In this document: piece by piece, positions 704 to 63,458 of the stretch
How the letters are laid out: every line of letters begins with the position of its first letter
Numbering within the stretch: position 1 is the first letter of the stretch
Source: a virus
Reading direction: 5' to 3' (one strand)
IMG/VR virus record: IMGVR_UViG_3300037140_000126
Coordinates: 1-64,000 of that record
Length of the DNA stretch: 64,000 nucleotides
Program-made: the position numbers and the translations under genes
Notes under the pieces: model-generated
Told to the model about the DNA's origin: nothing
Database searches by the model: none
The model's input: the letters and a program-made list of their open reading frames with translations, nothing else

Positions 704-3136
704 TCATGGTAGTCCGAACCACACTGCGTTGTTGCCTGGAGTTAGATACGCTCCGATGTTCCATTTGCCACTCTGAGCACCTGTCAGCACTCTATTCGGC
801 CACACTGATACAGGAAGCAAAGCGTTCTGATATGTCGAGCCTAGATTGACTCCTGAATTGATGGCCGGAGAACCGGATTGCAGAGTAAGAACATCACTTG
901 CTGGGGTCGTAAACTTTGGATCACCGTCAATCCCATGTACTTCTTGCGCCGCCACGGCTGCGTGGAATGCTACACGGCTCCCGTAAAACGAGTTGTACCA
1001 ATCTACGCAGGGGGACGCCCCGTTGCAGAAATAATCATTGTAATCAAACACGTTCGAGGTTGGATCACTGTGGGCTGTGTTATCGGCCCAAACAAGATCG
1101 CCGCTGCTGGTCACGTTGGCAAAGATGTTATTCTTGACCAATGTGCTGACTGTCGTTCCGCCATCACTCGCCCAGCCCAGTTGAAGAGCAATGCCACCAG
1201 TCGGATTGTAGAGAGTATTCCCATAAACGACATTAGAAGCTGACGACTCGCTCACGTTAGCCCGAATCCAAATAACCTTGTTAATTGACGTAGCCTGTCG
1301 TCCGTTCACGACGTTGTACTCAATCACATTGTTAGATGCCGACTCCATAATGATTCCGTATTGTGGTGTTGCACTTGCGCCGGTTGAAAACTTATTGTAC
1401 CGAATCGTGTCATGCGCACAGGAGTCGTTTGTTCCATTACCCGACTCATCGCACCACACCCCAAATTTGTTTGCCGTTGCTGTGCTTACGTTGTAGGCAA
1501 TATCCAGATACCAGCTATCCTCGCTCATTAGTGCTGCTCCAGAGGAAACTGAAGAGGTCCCGCTAATCGTGTTGTAGCGAAGGTAAGACCCTGTGTTCGC
1601 GTGGGTGCTCGCGTGACTGAATTTTATTCCTCCCGTGTAATTGTTGCTCGCAAGATCGCTGAGCGTGATGGTGTTAGAAAAAATGTGAACTGAATCTCCC
1701 CAAAGAACTTGGATTCCGCGCCAATCATTCCCGGTGTCCCCGCCAACATCGGAAATAGTGTTGCTGTCAGCGTCGAAGCCATCGAAATGCGTTGCAGCGG
1801 ACCCGATAGCGCCAATTCCGTAATGCCAAGTTCCGTTCAGGGTATTCCCGGTGATTGTCCAATTCACAGAGGTTCCCGAGCTGCGCGTTGGAAAGATCAA
1901 AGCGATGTTTGTGTAACTGCACTGCAATCCGCTGATCGTGATGTTTGTTTTGTCTACAGAGGTGATCGCATAGTTCCTCTGAGCGACTTCGAAGGTATGA
2001 CTCCCAGTTGTGGGGTTGCTACTTCCAGCATAGGTATAGAATCTGGAGTTGACGGAATCCCACCACCACTCTGTCACCGAGGCATCAGAATTAAGAGTAG
2101 TCTTGCTGGTCGCAACCGTCATGCGCGAGCCGTCTCGCCAGCCGATGTACGGAGTCGCGGATTCAGATGTGTACCAGAGATTTGTTCCGCTTACCGTGCT
2201 TAAAGATATGTCGTCCAGATAGTATGAACCTGCCCAAGAGTCCATTTTTATTTCGTCTACCGTCATCGAATTTGTGGCTAGTCCTGTAATTGTTTGCTCG
2301 GTGGTTCCATCAACCTTTAGAACACACCCACCCGCCGCCGGGTCGGTCACCATCACTAAATCAACTTCATGCCAAACATCGAGAACGGCGGCGACGTTAT
2401 ACGCGGAGGTAGATGTCCCGACAACCGAATTGTTATAGCAGGTAGCTGTGACTTGCAGATTGCTGCTGGCGTAGGTAAAGTGCAGTTGAGCAACCGTATT
2501 CAATGCTGCATTATACAGCCATAGCTGCGAATCTGGATTGGTTGTCGAATGGTTCGCCACCCACAACGTCCATGTAGCGTTACTGAGACTTCCGATAGAT
2601 GTCTTCGTTAGAGCAGAATCCTTATTTGACGCCGCCTCCAATACGGAGTACGTCCCCGAATGTGTAAGGGCAGTTGAAACTGTCCATCCAGCAGGAGCGC
2701 CGTTGTTGGTTGCCACCCATTTGGACAAGTCTCCGGTTTCAAATCCATCCGAAAATATGACACTACTACTAAAGTCCTGCGTCCATGCTCCTGTCGTATT
2801 AGCAGACGCCGATCCAAGAATTTTAGGTAGTGCCCCGCTACCGTAAGCTCCGTAGGTTATGACGTTCCCCACGGTGCCAGTCACCCCTACCGTTTCCATA
2901 TCACGCCACGTATCTCCACGATTCAGCAAGATTGAGTCACCAGCATTTATCGTTGTAGACGTGCAGACTGATGAGCAACCTGCCATTCCAGGTGCAAATG
3001 CCCATGACGCCCCTGTTGAAGTTCCAGCGGCAGCGTTGCTCCCAGCATTTGAGACGTAGTATGTCGTAGCCGAAGCCGGAAGCGCGAAGACCAAGAGCGA
3101 GAAAATAATTATAAATTGTCTCATCGTTGTTCTCAT
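704..3136 (-). CDS. secreted right-handed beta-helix (pectin lyase-like) protein with lectin-like insert, C-terminus NNAVWFGLP
   Basis: Signal peptide (MRQFIIIFSLLVFALPASA), TTYYVSNAGSN start, many ITGNT/IYNN-type rungs, FSDGFETGDLSKW insert, GDPKF...LQSGSPAINSG near the end. Start placed at the ATGA overlap at 3136. Confidence 0.75.
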   Translation of the reverse strand: MRTTMRQFIIIFSLLVFALPASATTYYVSNAGSNAAAGTSTGASWAFAPGMAGCSSVCTSTTINAGDSILLNRGDTWRDMETVGVTGTVGNVITYGAYGSGALPKILGSASANTTGAWTQDFSSSVIFSDGFETGDLSKWVATNNGAPAGWTVSTALTHSGTYSVLEAASNKDSALTKTSIGSLSNATWTLWVANHSTTNPDSQLWLYNAALNTVAQLHFTYASSNLQVTATCYNNSVVGTSTSAYNVAAVLDVWHEVDLVMVTDPAAGGCVLKVDGTTEQTITGLATNSMTVDEIKMDSWAGSYYLDDISLSTVSGTNLWYTSESATPYIGWRDGSRMTVATSKTTLNSDASVTEWWWDSVNSRFYTYAGSSNPTTGSHTFEVAQRNYAITSVDKTNITISGLQCSYTNIALIFPTRSSGTSVNWTITGNTLNGTWHYGIGAIGSAATHFDGFDADSNTISDVGGDTGNDWRGIQVLWGDSVHIFSNTITLSDLASNNYTGGIKFSHASTHANTGSYLRYNTISGTSSVSSGAALMSEDSWYLDIAYNVSTATANKFGVWCDESGNGTNDSCAHDTIRYNKFSTGASATPQYGIIMESASNNVIEYNVVNGRQATSINKVIWIRANVSESSASNVVYGNTLYNPTGGIALQLGWASDGGTTVSTLVKNNIFANVTSSGDLVWADNTAHSDPTSNVFDYNDYFCNGASPCVDWYNSFYGSRVAFHAAVAAQEVHGIDGDPKFTTPASDVLTLQSGSPAINSGVNLGSTYQNALLPVSVWPNRVLTGAQSGKWNIGAYLTPGNNAVWFGLP

Positions 3137-3738
3137 TGGAAATCCTGACTCGGCACGCATTTCGCGGCGGTGCCGTTAAGATAGCAGGAAATTATATCGT
3201 TGGTCGCCAGCGCACCAGTTACACCCGTACCTACCGTAATAGTTGGTGTGCTGCCACCGGGCCACTCCACGACTCCCCCACCAGATGTGCTAATCATGCC
3301 GTCATAGGTTGAGCTAGTGGACTGGTATATAGTGAGTTGAAGTTTGAACGTACCAGTGCTCGGCTGCGTGAAGGTCAGAGCGCATGTATCACCCGCCGTG
3401 AGCGTAACATTTTGAATGTTCCCGTTCGCGGGTGCAATAGTCGCCGCCGTCGTGCAGGTGCCGTTTGAGTATTCGGCGTTTGTAGCTAACTGCGAAGTAT
3501 TAATCAGTCCAAAACTCTTCGTTCCAGTGATCGTCTGAACATCCTCTAGGGTGACATCCGTGTGCTGCGACTGTGGAGGATCGGGAGCAGCAACATCATC
3601 AACGATTAAGTCAGGCACTAGACCATGAGGCATATCCAAGCTGAAACTCATCTTTGCCACACACATCGGTGCTTGCGCTAGAAGAACAAGAAAGACGATC
3701 AAGAACATTCTGAATTTCGGAGTTATGATATGTCGCAT
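3133..3738 (-). CDS. signal-peptide protein with phage tail-fibre-type C-terminal beta domain (adaptor 1)
   Basis: NGNIQNVTLTAGDT...WPGGSTPTIT...DIISCYLNGT resembles a common phage fibre domain. Paralog of 11944..12534. Start at the TAATG overlap. Confidence 0.7.
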   Translation of the reverse strand: MRHIITPKFRMFLIVFLVLLAQAPMCVAKMSFSLDMPHGLVPDLIVDDVAAPDPPQSQHTDVTLEDVQTITGTKSFGLINTSQLATNAEYSNGTCTTAATIAPANGNIQNVTLTAGDTCALTFTQPSTGTFKLQLTIYQSTSSTYDGMISTSGGGVVEWPGGSTPTITVGTGVTGALATNDIISCYLNGTAAKCVPSQDFQ

Positions 3739-5072
3739 TATTTCCCCTGTCGGATGCACTGTATTGCTTGAATCACTTGCTCCAACGCGTCATCAAGCCC
3801 AATACCACTGTTCCTAAATAATCGGAGCGATGGATAAAACGGAGAATCACAACGGTTCAGTAAAAATTTCCAATCGGAGAGGCCAGGAATCATCACCCAA
3901 CATTTCTTACCTAGTGCACCTGCTAAATGAGCAACTCCGGTATCTACGGTAACGACGAGATCAAGATGTTCAATGATGCTTGCCGTGTCCTTCCAATTAC
4001 GAATGATTGGTGCCCATATGTTTTCAGTGGGTGCGTCCATCCCAAATTGTAAATTTACCCAACGAACACAATCAACAGCCAACAATCGGGTGGCTTGACT
4101 GAGATCAAGCGAGCGGTGTCTGCGTGGGTCAAGTCTCTCAGCACCCATCCAGCAAATTCCAACTGCTGGCTTTGATTTGTTAAACCACGCACTAGAATGA
4201 TGCATTTTAATATAGGGACCCAGTTTACTATCCTGTTCCGTATTCTCTACCGTTGCACCACACCGTTTTGCAAGCCCCATAATAGGAGCGAAATAGTCAT
4301 ACTGCTTTACACCATCTTTCTGAATATTTAGATCAACTTCTGGAAGCTCATCAGTGTCCGCTCCTTCATGGGTTGGTAGAATTTCATCAATCCACGGGTG
4401 CCTGTGCAGCAGTGGCACCATCACATCAGGGCACGCATACGTAATATGTGCACCCATCGCTTTCAAATTGCGAAACCAGCGCATGAACATCAGGTTGTCG
4501 CCAAAGCCGCCACCCTGCAAAACCAAGATGCGTTTACCTTGTAGTGGCTCACCCTGCCACTGTGGAATATATTGTGCGAGCCCTTCTTCCCAGAGCTTGC
4601 CCCAACAGTATTTTTCAAACAGTGGCCACGCTTCCTGCCAATCGCCTTGCCGCAGCCGCCCTTGGGCGTACAACAATCCAACAAATTGGTTCGTAGGATC
4701 GAGTTGATTCCCTTCGCTGGAAAGTTTCAATGCTTCGTCAAATCGTCCGAAGGTTTCAAGGATAACAGCAAGATTCAACAGTGTGTAGGCAGATCGGTTT
4801 AGCTCGACAGCTTTGCGGGCGCAGCATAAACCGCCCTCAGTATCTCCGGCAATATGCAGCGCAGTACCCAAGTGCATCCAAGAAAGCCAGTCAGCAGGTG
4901 TCTTACCTTTAGCACGGTCCACAAGCTCAAAGGCGTCAGCCCTCGTCATGATATAGCCAACACCAACATCAGGCACCAGTTTTGGATCATCATTCCAAGG
5001 CATCGCCCCAGAAGTAATATGAATTGGGCGTCCGTCGTTTAGTTCCAATGCATTTCCCATTAAGTCACCCAT
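3738..5072 (-). CDS. TPR-repeat + family 9 (heptosyltransferase-like) glycosyltransferase
   Basis: TPR-like helices, then ILVLQGGGFGDNLMF, VGICWMG, WVNLQFG, IIEHLDLVVTVDTGVAHLAGALGK, W...SPFYPSLRLFR. Start placed at MGDLMG. Confidence 0.85.
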   Translation of the reverse strand: MGDLMGNALELNDGRPIHITSGAMPWNDDPKLVPDVGVGYIMTRADAFELVDRAKGKTPADWLSWMHLGTALHIAGDTEGGLCCARKAVELNRSAYTLLNLAVILETFGRFDEALKLSSEGNQLDPTNQFVGLLYAQGRLRQGDWQEAWPLFEKYCWGKLWEEGLAQYIPQWQGEPLQGKRILVLQGGGFGDNLMFMRWFRNLKAMGAHITYACPDVMVPLLHRHPWIDEILPTHEGADTDELPEVDLNIQKDGVKQYDYFAPIMGLAKRCGATVENTEQDSKLGPYIKMHHSSAWFNKSKPAVGICWMGAERLDPRRHRSLDLSQATRLLAVDCVRWVNLQFGMDAPTENIWAPIIRNWKDTASIIEHLDLVVTVDTGVAHLAGALGKKCWVMIPGLSDWKFLLNRCDSPFYPSLRLFRNSGIGLDDALEQVIQAIQCIRQGK

Positions 5073-5259
5073 CCCCGCCGAAAGCACTACGCATGTCGGC
5101 AGCCTTGCGTAGCTGAGTACGTTTTTCTGCCATCGCCCACTCAAATATTTTGCAGTTGCGTTCAGCCTCTTGACCGAAAAACCTAGCAATTTCCAAGCCG
5201 CCTTCTTTTGCGACCCAATAATCGTTTCCTGATTCCTCGGGACAGAATGTAATCATCAT
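5065..5259 (-). CDS. hypothetical protein (64 aa)
   Basis: Fills the gap between the two GT genes and overlaps both neighbours. Confidence 0.55.
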   Translation of the reverse strand: MMITFCPEESGNDYWVAKEGGLEIARFFGQEAERNCKIFEWAMAEKRTQLRKAADMRSAFGGDG

Positions 5260-5948
5260 GACAGCACCTCACCCTTCAATGGATCGCCAACACGCAACGC
5301 ATCAATCTTCGGCATGTCTTGCACCCAGGATTTACCAGAATGATGTATCACATGACTCTTAAAACTCAGCAGTGTGGCATATCCAGCGTTGTTCAACTCG
5401 TATGACGCATACGTGTCCGAACGTACATGAATCGTATCGTTTCTTGTTTCGTCCAGATACAGTCCAGGTGTTCCACGCCGTAACGCCATCATCGAGAAAG
5501 CCTGCATCAAACAGAGCCACGCATGGCCAGTAACACCGTGCTTCCCGGATTCACACCAGCGCTGCGGCGCTTCTTCTGACCACACAGACCCAACGAGTGA
5601 CACCTTCAAGCCTTTCTTTTTCGCTTCAGCCCACACGCTATACAATTCTTCAAGCCATCCGGGATTGACCTCGCAATCCGAATTCAGCAAGACAGCTTCA
5701 TGTGTCCGCACTAAGCGCAATCCCAAGTTTGCGGCTCGCGTCCACCACCGCTGTTTTTCAGAACGGATATATAAGCTCGACGGGAAGGCCTGTAAAATAG
5801 CAAGCATGTAAGCAGTTGTCGCAGGTTCACTCGCGTCATCGACAAAGATAATTCGATTCAGGTCAGGCGTGTGCGCCAGAACACTAGCTACACACTTATG
5901 CAAGTAAGAAAGTGCATCGTGCACGGGGATGACTATATCGACGGGCAT
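5256..5948 (-). CDS. glycosyltransferase family 2
   Basis: DIVIPVHD, IIFVDDAS, AANLGLR, VLLNSDCEV (DxD-like), VIHHSGKS. Confidence 0.88.
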   Translation of the reverse strand: MPVDIVIPVHDALSYLHKCVASVLAHTPDLNRIIFVDDASEPATTAYMLAILQAFPSSLYIRSEKQRWWTRAANLGLRLVRTHEAVLLNSDCEVNPGWLEELYSVWAEAKKKGLKVSLVGSVWSEEAPQRWCESGKHGVTGHAWLCLMQAFSMMALRRGTPGLYLDETRNDTIHVRSDTYASYELNNAGYATLLSFKSHVIHHSGKSWVQDMPKIDALRVGDPLKGEVLS

Positions 5949-60339: not shown

Positions 60340-61628
60340 CTAAATTGCAATATCCTGGCCAGGTTTGGCATAATATGCCGTGTAGCCCACCACGGTCTCG
60401 CCGTCGAGCGGATCATCGAAGGCCAATGCCTCCATGACACAATCCAGCTCGTAGCCCGTCAAGTCGGTTGTCCCGACGTTTTCAATCGCCCAAGCCGCTA
60501 CGTCGCGGAACTGATTGATTGAAACGTGCGGGTAGTACAGTGCAATCTGGGCTTGGTCAATCGTGTCGAGTATGAATAACCCGGACCATTCTGTGATGAA
60601 CGTGCCGCCTTCTCTCGCTGCCCAACCAGAAATCAACTGCACGTTCGACCCGGCTGGCGGTGTACCTTGTGGTGTGTTCGCAGGAACGGCAGTTGTGCCC
60701 CCGCCGCCGCCTACAAACGGTGCGTTGAGTGTGAGCACGTTACCATTGACGGCAATGATTCTCGCAACGAAGTCACTTGTCTTACGGATGTAATCCACAT
60801 CTGTGACGGCGTTTGGAAAGACAGGAACACCCGCCTCACCGATAAGCCCGTATGTTCCAAGCGTATAGTCGATATCGGCTACGATGAAGTCCCCAGCCGA
60901 GGCGCTGATCGCCGCCGCGCTAGTGACAGTGATTGACGGTGTAGCGGCCGAATAGCTGACCATTGCTGTCTTAGGGGCTCCTGAAGCAGACAGCGGGCCA
61001 GCGGTAGTTGCTGTTGAGCCATCCAGCAGGTTGATAGGATTAGTGCCCGTTGCGATCTTGAAGGCCATGCGCGACGCTTCGCGGAACTTGAATTCGAACG
61101 ACTCGCCGACTTGCCCTCTGTATTGCGCCCGGACTGCACCGCGATAACCGGAACGTACTTGGCCGATCTTTGATGCAGGCGTGATCTTGAAATCCTTGAT
61201 CCAGCCCAAATCTGTAAAGCCCGCCGGTGGGGAATACGTATTGAACGGACCACCAGTCTGCAAATCCAGCATCGTCGGGCCTACAGAAGTATTGGCGACC
61301 GACGATCCTAAGGCGGCGTTATAGGGCGCAAAGAATGCCCTATATCCGGCCCCGATCATGAGCATGTTCTTAAGCTTTGTTACAAATCAGGTTTTCTGAT
61401 TTGGGTTGGTCATTTCTGCCAACCTCTTACGGTTCTTATTCCCGTAAGCCCCGACTATTGCATCACCATTCTTGCACTCTCGGTGCCTTCTCGCTTAGTC
61501 TGTCAGCGTCCCTTTAGGGTTCGCCCTCGTTGCCATTCTCAGGGTTCGAGTCAATCAGAGAAGGTTTTACTTCCGCAAGAACGCTACGTGATACGGAAGG
61601 GCTGAACTAATGCCTTTGAGAGTGCCAT
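60340..61628 (-). CDS. major tail (tube) protein, spliced: join(61628..61593, 61374..60340), 356 aa
   Basis: Exon 1 MALSKALVQPFR has an AAGGAG SD. Exon 2 LKNMLMIGAGYRAF... has a tube-like DLGWIKD..ITP motif. The ORF-track ATG at 61365 lacks an SD. Confidence 0.82.
61375..61592 (-). ncRNA. group I self-splicing intron, ORF-less, 218 nt
   Basis: P1 CUUCCGU/GCGGAAG with U-G at the 5' splice site, P10 GUUCUU/AAGAAC, P3 CCUUCUC/GAGAAGG, P4 CUCG/CGAG, P6 GCG/CGC, P7 GACUA/UAGUC, P8 CACC/GGUG, three P9 hairpins, terminal UAACAAAG. Confidence 0.92.
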
Positions 61629-61715
61629 TTTAGTTAAGTCTCCTTATAGTTACGTTTGGGGCCACTTCCGGTAGACTTAACCGAATTGCCCCATGACCAA
61701 CTGTCCTGGCCATCA
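61629..61715 (-). promoter_or_regulatory. structured 5' leader of the tail tube gene (two hairpins plus loop-SD pseudoknot)
   Basis: AUGGCCA/UGGUCAU and GGGGC..UUCGGU/ACCGGA..GCCCC stems. GUUAAGUCU (61681-61673) is complementary to AGACUUAAC (61641-61633). Confidence 0.55.
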
Positions 61716-61721
61716 GCTTAA

Positions 61722-62447
61722 CTATTGGCACTCTTCTTCACATGCTTCCAACGAAGTCAGAATTCTAAACTCAATGTCCGCAGATTTACAAAACGCTCTT
61801 GCGGCCCTAAACTTGGCTTGATTCTTTGGGTCCTTGAGAAAGGCGACTGGTTTGATTTCTTCCAGTATATGCGTGCCATCTGCGTAGCAAATCAGCAAAT
61901 CGGGAAGGTAATAATGCGCCTTGCCATTCAAACTGTATGGAATCCGTACAGGTGTGCGTCTATAACTTGACACTTCGTTAGAAAGTTCAAGCACACGCAT
62001 ACGAGCTAACTCCCAAGAACAGTCGTAATGCATAGTCCTGTGATTCTTTTTGGAGTAGAAGTCACCGTGCTTACCACGGTTTACACGAGTTTTCCAGTAA
62101 CGCTCTGTTCCATCAGCGTCCTTAATAAAGTTACGAATGTTTTGTGCGGGGTCTAAACGCCCGTCGGCAATCGCTTCACGGACACCAGCACTATTCCTCT
62201 CTCGGTGAACGTGGCACACCTTCTTGCCCTTAGGCCATCCCATGTGTATATTATGCTCAAGATTATATGCACGTAGCCGCTTACCATTCTCGACTTTAGC
62301 TTTTGCACCTTCCGCCGTGAAAAGACGAGGGCCACACGAATCTTTCACACCTTTCGGTCGTCCAGCAGCGCTCATATCACGCTTCGCGTAACGCCCATCG
62401 CGCCACGCTTTGCGGAGCTTTGCTTTCTTTTGTTCAGGGCATTTCAT
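61722..62447 (-). CDS. free-standing TnsA-N-like PD-(D/E)xK endonuclease with basic N-terminal DNA-binding region (putative homing endonuclease)
   Basis: YDCSWEL, IPYSLNGKAHYYLPDLLI, LEEIKP, KNQAKFRAARAFC, FRILT. NUMOD3-like basic repeats at the N-terminus. Confidence 0.8.
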   Translation of the reverse strand: MKCPEQKKAKLRKAWRDGRYAKRDMSAAGRPKGVKDSCGPRLFTAEGAKAKVENGKRLRAYNLEHNIHMGWPKGKKVCHVHRERNSAGVREAIADGRLDPAQNIRNFIKDADGTERYWKTRVNRGKHGDFYSKKNHRTMHYDCSWELARMRVLELSNEVSSYRRTPVRIPYSLNGKAHYYLPDLLICYADGTHILEEIKPVAFLKDPKNQAKFRAARAFCKSADIEFRILTSLEACEEECQ

Positions 62448-62987: not shown

Positions 62988-63458
62988 TCAGTAAATCCTT
63001 CTTACCATGAGTTGCTGCAAGCCCGCATATCGCTCTGCACCGATAATCTTGATAACGTCAAGCTCCATGTCTTCCTCGGGTGCTTTCATACGCAGCAGCA
63101 TCATCAGCCACATGTACCACCACAACTTTGCAGGCTGCATACTGTCGAACGATTCACACGCAAACGTGAACGTAGCGCCGAATGCGTCTTTCGGTTCAAA
63201 CTTGGCCATCGACAGGCACGCGTCCTTGAAGTTTGTTCTGTAGCAACGCGTCCCAACAAGAGATGCATTGCGTAGATTCGCACCTTCAAAGTTCGCATAG
63301 CTCAAATCCGCATCATCGAAGTTCGCCCCAATTAAACTGGCACAGCGAAAATCAGCATGATCGAGTTTCTGTCCGGAGAAATTGCGGTTCGCCAGTTTCT
63401 TATTATAAAAGTCTTTCCCCACCCTGTCGGCACGTACAGTTGGCATCGTGTTCCCCAT
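62988..63458 (-). CDS. pentapeptide-repeat protein
   Basis: LDHADFRCASLIGANFDDADLSYANFEGANLRNASL A(D/N)LXX repeats. Confidence 0.88.
   Translation of the reverse strand: MGNTMPTVRADRVGKDFYNKKLANRNFSGQKLDHADFRCASLIGANFDDADLSYANFEGANLRNASLVGTRCYRTNFKDACLSMAKFEPKDAFGATFTFACESFDSMQPAKLWWYMWLMMLLRMKAPEEDMELDVIKIIGAERYAGLQQLMVRRIY

Follow-up and report, generated by a model that had tools for sequence, protein, structure and literature searches.

How does a phage produce the main protein of its tail tube when the gene is broken off twelve codons after its start? The question is raised by a soil phage whose genome assembles repeatedly at ~125 kb from several samples; the window analysed here is a stretch of 64,000 nucleotides from it (IMG/VR record IMGVR_UViG_3300037140_000126, positions 1 to 64,000). 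All features of the tube gene and of its intron lie on the minus strand (Table 1). A Shine-Dalgarno (SD) sequence and a start codon, both kept across all intron-bearing relatives, introduce a short exon whose peptide matches exactly the N-terminal residues of ~100 uninterrupted homologues, and the frame then runs into a stop inside an insert whose RNA forms a more stable fold than any of 200 shuffled versions (z = -3.9). The rest of the gene follows as a separate ORF, upstream of whose start inspection of the sequence found no SD-like purine run. Public protein calls for the gene start at MLMIG or MIG, and no spliced-form protein or transcript of the source-phage allele was found in the databases and protein collection searched. 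A sequence-only reading of this DNA had proposed that a hidden ORF-less group I intron, invisible to ORF callers, splits the gene after codon 12, that unspliced mRNA stops two codons into the insert and that the downstream ATG lacks an SD. These proposals stand: the layout and the homologues bear out the 12-codon exon and the stop, and the intron itself is supported by canonical anatomy, by the covariation of 43 pairs and by intronless alleles. The locus very probably consists of a compact ORF-less group I intron in a single tube gene, mobile together with a TnsA-like nuclease encoded upstream and bearing an anomaly at its last nucleotide, omega.

Table 1. Features of the interrupted tail-tube gene and of its upstream neighbour, in window coordinates
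Feature	Position	Strand	Description and basis
TnsA-like PD-(D/E)xK nuclease ORF, free-standing	61722-62447	-	241 aa; PF08722
Shine-Dalgarno AAGGAG	61645-61640	-	11 nt before the exon-1 ATG; read directly
Exon-1 ATG	61628-61626	-	Read directly
Exon 1	61628-61593	-	12 codons, MALSKALVQPFR; ends in the splice-site U (61593)
Group I intron (by homology, P10 and P9.0)	61592-61372	-	221 nt; intronless alleles and same-site introns
In-frame stop TAG (ATC ACG TAG)	61586-61584	-	Two codons inside the insert
Internal guide	61582-61570	-	GUUCUU (P10 strand, 61582-61577), then GCGGAAG (P1 strand, 61576-61570)
Catalytic core P3, J3/4, P4, P5, P6/P6a, P7, P3', P8, J8/7	61564-61452	-	Covariation
3' peripheral domain P9, P9a, P9b, conserved UAACAA (61382-61377)	61448-61377	-	Family alignment
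Alternative intron ends	61375 or 61369	-	61375 is the choice of the sequence-only reading
Omega position	61372	-	U in the source-phage copy at the homology-defined junction
Exon 2, tail-tube gene	60340-61371	-	KNMLMIG... through the stop; homology to uninterrupted relatives
Downstream ORF	60340-61365	-	341 aa, starts MLMIG; begins 227 nt beyond the stretch of the exon-1 frame

The product of the interrupted gene matches nothing in Pfam or PHROGs. Its AlphaFold model, of moderate confidence (pLDDT 76), finds as top Foldseek matches in the PDB the tail-tube proteins of siphophages, 9n71 (Mystique, 2.5e-9), 6xgr (YSD1), 8vjh and 8rk3, with Chi and JBD30 among the phages represented; E-values for the tube fold range from 2.5e-9 to ~1e-5 and TM scores from 0.3 to 0.4. 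The position of the gene fits, between head-tail connectors and the tape-measure gene. Two genes downstream lies an ORF of 2436 aa (L007 4724-6020, corresponding to the window below ~59100, minus strand), presumably a very long tape-measure protein that would imply an unusually long tail. The modelled fold and this neighbour support the identification as a siphophage major tail (tube) protein, as the sequence-only reading had it. No second tube gene was found in the 125-kb genome. The tube protein of the source phage and of several relatives appears to be mis-called publicly, the true N-terminus lying ~220 nt upstream. Amid the head-tail connector genes stands a gene for a 156-aa pentapeptide-repeat protein (62988-63458, minus strand; PF00805, 7e-14), which occupies the same position in L003, L006, L007, L159 and L160.

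Intronless alleles in relatives, which the sequence-only reading had named as a check, do exist and fix the limits of the insert. The 341-aa ORF, used as a query, drew 487 relatives; among the best 120, the majority measure 350-370 aa and start with MALSKALVQPFRKNMLLIG or a near variant, and about 100 homologues carry MALSKALVQPFRKNMLLIG without interruption. At the DNA level, the intronless alleles of L006, L125, L126 and L148 run unbroken across ..CCN TTC CGN AAR AAY... For example, L148 encodes MALSKALVQPFRKNMLMIGAGYRA, that is, exon 1 fused exactly to exon 2 of the source phage at FR|KN, and its continuation MLMIGAGYRA is identical to that of the source phage; around the insertion point it reads ..CCGTTCCGTAAGAAC.., with the putative nuclease target stretch ..CAACCATTCCGAAAAAAT... 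Because L148 joins FR|KN, the insert comprises 61592-61372 and not 61592-61375, the extent originally proposed. The splice of CGU to CUU predicted with it, giving FR-L-KN in a protein of 356 aa, gives way to the FR|KN of the intronless alleles and 355 aa, and the preferred 3' site AAAG|CUU to CGU|AAG, 3 nt downstream, the junction to which homology, P10 (6 bp) and P9.0 all point.

Homologous introns occupy three sites in tube genes. Those of L003 and L004 share the place of the source-phage intron (site A, ..TTCCGT|AAGAAC), those of L127, L130, L153, L154, L159 and L160 lie 5 nt upstream (site B, ..CAACCGT|TTCGN..), and that of L142 is found at CCT|TTC (site C); the sites other than A thus lie 5-6 nt upstream of it. 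In every case the guide tracks the exon sequence (GCGGAAG, GCGGAAU, GCGGUUG, GCGGCUG, GGGCUG). In exon 1 of the source phage, the eight nucleotide differences from L003 are all synonymous, as are the five differences from L004 save for the ATG/GTG start codon. In L130, L159 and L160, exon 2 offers no ATG close to its 5' end, which implies that the family depends on splicing. Three insertion sites are crowded into 6 nt of one gene (61593-61600 in the window; L127, L130, L142, L153, L159 and L160 among the relatives). Sites A and B each come after one copy of a repeated CCGU (CAACCGU|UUCCGU|AAG), and site-A and site-B guides differ in their last three bases alone (GCGGAAG versus GCGGUUG); the clustering suggests either site switching by mutation of the guide or competition for one nuclease target. 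Upstream of exon 1, a conserved leader (61655-61715, minus strand) reads ..GATGGCCAGGACAGTTGGTCATG.. and continues into a hairpin with covarying arms. It is present in intron-bearing (L003) and intronless (L006, L125) alleles, and the 3' arm of its hairpin is CGGAAG in the source phage and UCGAAG in L003, the guide being the same in both.

The anatomy of the insert is that of a compact, ORF-less group I intron devoid of P2, with a short P4-P5 and a P9/P9a/P9b tail. P1 (CUUCCGU/GCGGAAG) places a U.G wobble at the 5' splice site, and the P10 strand abuts the P1 strand in the guide (P10 = AAGAAC/GUUCUU). J1/3 (UAAAA) leads to P3 (CCUUCUC/GAGAAGG), to P4 (CUCG/CGAG, with AA and CAA on its flanks), to a short P5 and then to P6/P6a; P7 (C-A(bulge)-GACUA/UAGUC-G), P8 (CACC/GGUG) and J8/7 (AUGCAA) complete the core. 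All the helices named in the sequence-only reading (P1 with its U-G pair, P10, P3, P4, P6, P7, P8, P9a-c) are present. Three 3' hairpins follow the core, and P9a carries a conserved loop, CAGAAAUGA. The only departures of the source-phage copy from the >=90% family consensus are loop insertions. The G-C pair of P7 beside the bulged nucleotide, which we take to be the guanosine-binding site by analogy with G264-C311 of Tetrahymena, is intact; J8/7 is conserved, and P7 matches the classical R and S elements of the Tetrahymena intron. In such a structure, the guide GCGGAAG would pair with the exon end CUUCCGU to form P1 with its U.G pair, exogenous G would attack after U61593, the segment GUUCUU would pair with AAGAAC and align exon 2, and ligation would restore ..PFR|KNMLMIG.., as encoded by the intronless relatives.

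A core pattern of the family, GACTAAGC-N20-45-ATGCAATAGTC, was searched in IMG/VR and matches 115 stretches from phage metagenomes. In an alignment of 74 non-redundant copies (A1), 43 pairs over P3-P9a are paired at 97.8%, against 33-41% in slid controls; 32 of the 43 show changes on both sides, and the covariation score of 0.615 (versus ~0.08) is reached by none of 500 shuffles. Covariation supports P3, P4, P5, P6, P6a, P7, P8, P9 and P9a, and with them the pseudoknot in which P3 and P7 cross. Within P7, GACUA/UAGUC is invariant and the closing pair around the bulge covaries (G-C, A-U, C-G). The splice-site helices vary in the same manner, P1 through compensatory variants (AUUCCGU/GCGGAAU, CAACCGU/GCGGUUG, CAGCCGU/GCGGCUG) and P10, in site-B introns, along with synonymous Arg codons (UUCG/CGAG versus UUAG/CUAG). 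Both pairs of P9.0 form in 37 of the 74 members, against ~24 expected; this enrichment is moderate, and P9.0 was dropped as a rule for the whole family. The family covariance model (R1) scores the source-phage intron at 183 bits and finds no second copy in its genome.

The curated Rfam model is blind to this intron: the Infernal/Rfam check proposed earlier gave no RF00028 (Intron_gpI) match, whether it covered the entire window, with the gathering score as threshold, or 61200-61800 at E <= 10. The connection is provided by a divergent member in L050 (10314-10570), which first looked unrelated and later proved to be a bridge. RF00028 matches it over its full length with 55.5 bits (gathering score 50) and R1 with 51.9 bits, and the two models agree on where R, P3', P8, S and P9 lie; the intron being matched by both models, the family is tied to curated group I introns. 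It shares with them, besides this one member, an R-like CAGACUAAG, an S-like AAUAGUC and the order of P3, P7, P8 and P9. It differs in the absence of P2 and in a P4 of 4 bp and a P5 of 2 bp, and the source-phage copy, like every other tested member save that of L050, falls below detection. Among 50,697 cultured-phage records, blastn gave no real match to the locus; at E <= 10 it gave only crumbs of 19-26 nt, in Pseudomonas phage EL, Roseobacter phage DSS3P8 and others, and EL and DSS3P8, which have no R1 match, were rejected as relatives. The family numbers over 100 copies in phage metagenomes and the Rfam model does not see it, so that counts of introns in soil phages are too low; with a dedicated covariance model such as R1 these introns are easy to find. 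Some phage contigs are extremely intron-dense, with seven R1 matches in the 13.5 kb of L050 (the whole contig), three each within ~750 nt in L108 (229-976) and L017 (1436-2208) and four in L065 (3318-6139); L045 (5474-8126) is another such contig. The L065 introns adjoin free-standing nuclease ORFs, one (2489-3169) matching homing-endonuclease PHROGs (phrog_314, with the GIY-YIG family among weaker matches) and the other (5021-5548) endonuclease VII-like.

The omega position is where the source-phage copy parts from its kin. Omega was placed from well-supported cases alone, automated P1/ORF-joining having given many 'no solution' results over the 74 members. All nine related tube-gene introns (L003, L004, L127, L130, L142, L153, L154, L159, L160) have G at omega, at the end of tails that follow UAACAA as ACUG, GUUG, AUAAG, AAAG, CUAAG, CAGG, UGGG or UUGG. 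The source phage has AGCUU|AAGAAC here, and its intron ends in U61372; the G at 61375 that the sequence-only reading took as terminal is not the homologous omega position. An assembly error is ruled out, since three independent SRA assemblies from different runs (L007, L008, L009) agree on the sequence. P10 and P9.0 both register on the U61372 junction, the CU of P9.0 pairing with the GG next to the invariant J7/9 G, an arrangement shared with L003; its counterparts are UU/AA in L004 and AA/UU in L127. The nearest Gs lie at 61375 (-3; AAAG|CUU, adding Leu) and at 61369 (+3; CUUAAG|AAC, removing Lys). Both are in frame, as the sequence-only reading had noted for CUUAAG|AAC. When omega-G is mutated in the introns of Tetrahymena and T4, exon ligation is severely impaired. 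Since the G-binding G-C pair is unchanged here, nothing compensates for a non-G omega. Nothing useful on a natural non-G omega in group I introns was found in the literature.

What, then, becomes of the message? An explanation that dispenses with the intron deserves next to no credence. A stop two codons into the insert and a stable fold would also suit a structured leader or attenuator behind a 14-codon upstream ORF, or programmed translational bypassing as in T4 gene 60, but intronless alleles fuse both ORFs exactly, the guide covaries with both exon flanks and the group I core covaries as well. A bypass of that type works with matching codons and a gap of ~50 nt; here the take-off codon would be CGU or AUC, no match is found before AAG and the gap measures 221 nt. 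The sequences compared already contradict such readings. It is rather unlikely that the copy is dead at its second step, leaving the tube protein to start at the internal ATG (61365, MLMIG) without 14 conserved residues or the lineage to be defective. The absence of omega-G, an ATG that happens to come after the junction and public gene calls that begin at MLMIG would agree with it. It is opposed by the lack of an SD before 61365, with the exon-1 ORF stopping >200 nt upstream, and by a Met that is not conserved (homologues read KNT, KNL, KNK or KNE), set against a highly conserved N-terminal LVQPFRKN; exon 1 survives undamaged together with its SD and start codon, and the complete genome recurs in several samples.

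The same recurrence bears on the outcomes in which the exons are joined: given a single tube gene in a genome that recurs at ~125 kb, some functional product is to be expected. There is about an even chance that a catalytically intact intron uses a cryptic 3' site at a flanking G, yielding FR-L-KN in 356 aa from 61375 or FR-N in 354 aa from 61369. The reading frame is kept at both Gs, neither the core nor the G-binding pair is damaged, and the tail from UAACAA to omega-G is 4 to 8 nt long among same-site relatives, so that +8 (61369) falls within the range; the +2 tail (61375), on the other hand, is shorter than in any verified family member. Neither G has P9.0 (0 of 2 pairs at each), in-register P10 comes to 0 bp at -3 and 2 bp at +3, and FRKN is nearly invariant among homologues. 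Splicing at the canonical CGU|AAG despite a U at omega would be positioned by P10 (6 bp) and P9.0 (CU/GG), both of which register on U61372, and would have the conserved FRKN as its product. Such an outcome is nevertheless improbable: omega-G is the leaving-group nucleotide of the second step (PMC3984707), and the unchanged P7 pair offers no compensation. The second splicing step of this copy must be impaired or shifted to an in-frame G. The boldest proposition, that a circulating phage with U at omega in its sole tube gene ligates the exons efficiently, either canonically without omega-G or through a cryptic in-frame G at the cost of a one-residue change, is very doubtful; if true, it would be a natural experiment on the dispensability of omega-G when P10 and P9.0 are strong. 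In any event, the variant provides a cheap and testable case of 3' splice-site choice.

The group I intron, whatever its 3' end, has a neighbour that the sequence-only reading missed. An ORF that ends 94 nt before exon 1, with a 172-aa gene on its upstream side and the conserved tube-gene leader on the other, encodes a protein that matches the TnsA endonuclease N-terminal domain (PF08722; 5e-16, 59.4 bits, cut-off 26.5). Its residues E146, D183, E197 and K199 (E..PD..ExK) are invariant in nine homologues, and its N-terminal region, of unassigned fold, contains GRPKG. In the PDB search it matched TnsA alone (1.6e-4), with no match to I-Ssp6803I. Only 10 homologues were found among 5.8 billion proteins, and at least six of the ten appear, from gene tables, to sit on contigs that also carry the tube gene. 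The best PHROG match (phrog_218, 2.5e-17) bears the label 'head closure', a mis-annotation that probably stems from the position of such nucleases, inserted as they are in structural modules.

In the source phage, in L153 and in the P0009 contig, this nuclease gene is free-standing and lies upstream of exon 1; it is embedded in the P8 loop of the intron in L154, L159 and L160 (43-46% identity to the source-phage nuclease in the alignment; 48% with L154 in a BLASTP local alignment), one nuclease lineage being thus found both beside and inside the same intron lineage. In L130 (~2290-2400), a P8-loop insert of ~110 nt codes for the last ~21 residues of the nuclease, ..KLFCKRLGISFRVIS.., and on this sequence evidence is a deletion remnant, a decay stage of the homing cycle. 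L003, L004, L127 and L142 have the intron without the nuclease; L006, L125, L126 and L148 have neither. No TnsA-like ORF was found near other introns of the family in the IMG/VR loci, and the partnership is therefore specific to the tube-gene subset. The 241-aa ORF is a candidate homing endonuclease and the likely mobility partner of the intron: when relatives co-infect, it would cut their intronless alleles close to the intron site, and repair would copy the nuclease gene and the intron together. By analogy, this arrangement is that of collaborative (trans) homing, a model already described (PMC3984707; PMC6083498), plus the proposed route to composite mobile introns. The series of loci offers every proposed stage of the birth and decay of a mobile intron in one gene and with one nuclease lineage, from the empty site to the intron alone, the intron with a free-standing nuclease, the nuclease inside the intron and the nuclease remnant.

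An intron in a virion gene is not novel as such, and on this point the sequence-only reading, which had stressed how unusual it was, is not supported. Spliced introns, most likely of group I, are known in phage capsid and minor-tail genes, namely a 265-bp intron in the minor-tail gene of mycobacteriophages BAKA and Optimus and introns in the capsid genes of LittleE and Tuc2009 (PMC3706429). The present intron resembles these in its small size, in its residence in a highly expressed late structural gene, in the U that ends exon 1 and in its recognition by comparison with intronless relatives. It differs in its host, the major tail-tube gene, in its position 36 nt after the start, in belonging to another, Rfam-invisible family and in that its splicing is predicted from sequence; moreover, the BAKA and LittleE introns have the terminal G that the source-phage copy lacks. 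For trans homing, the precedents are the psbA intron of cyanophage S-PM2 with the free-standing F-CphI and the DNA-polymerase introns of T7-like phages (Zeng et al. 2009; Bonocora & Shub 2009, via PMC3984707; PMC6083498). There, as here, homologous nucleases occur both free-standing and intron-embedded; in the present case the nuclease is a TnsA-like PD-(D/E)xK enzyme and not an Endo VII or HNH one, the target is a structural gene, and cleavage at the insertion site is inferred. PD-(D/E)xK enzymes of the I-Ssp6803I type are among the six families of homing endonucleases (PMC6083498). With them the nuclease shares the catalytic superfamily and motif, and in L154, L159 and L160 the intron-encoded state, but it differs in matching the TnsA N-terminal domain; no description of a TnsA-like nuclease as a homing enzyme was found in the literature. 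What is less ordinary in this system is the combination of a large intron family invisible to Rfam, a TnsA-like nuclease found both free-standing and embedded, and a natural copy in which omega has changed from G to U.
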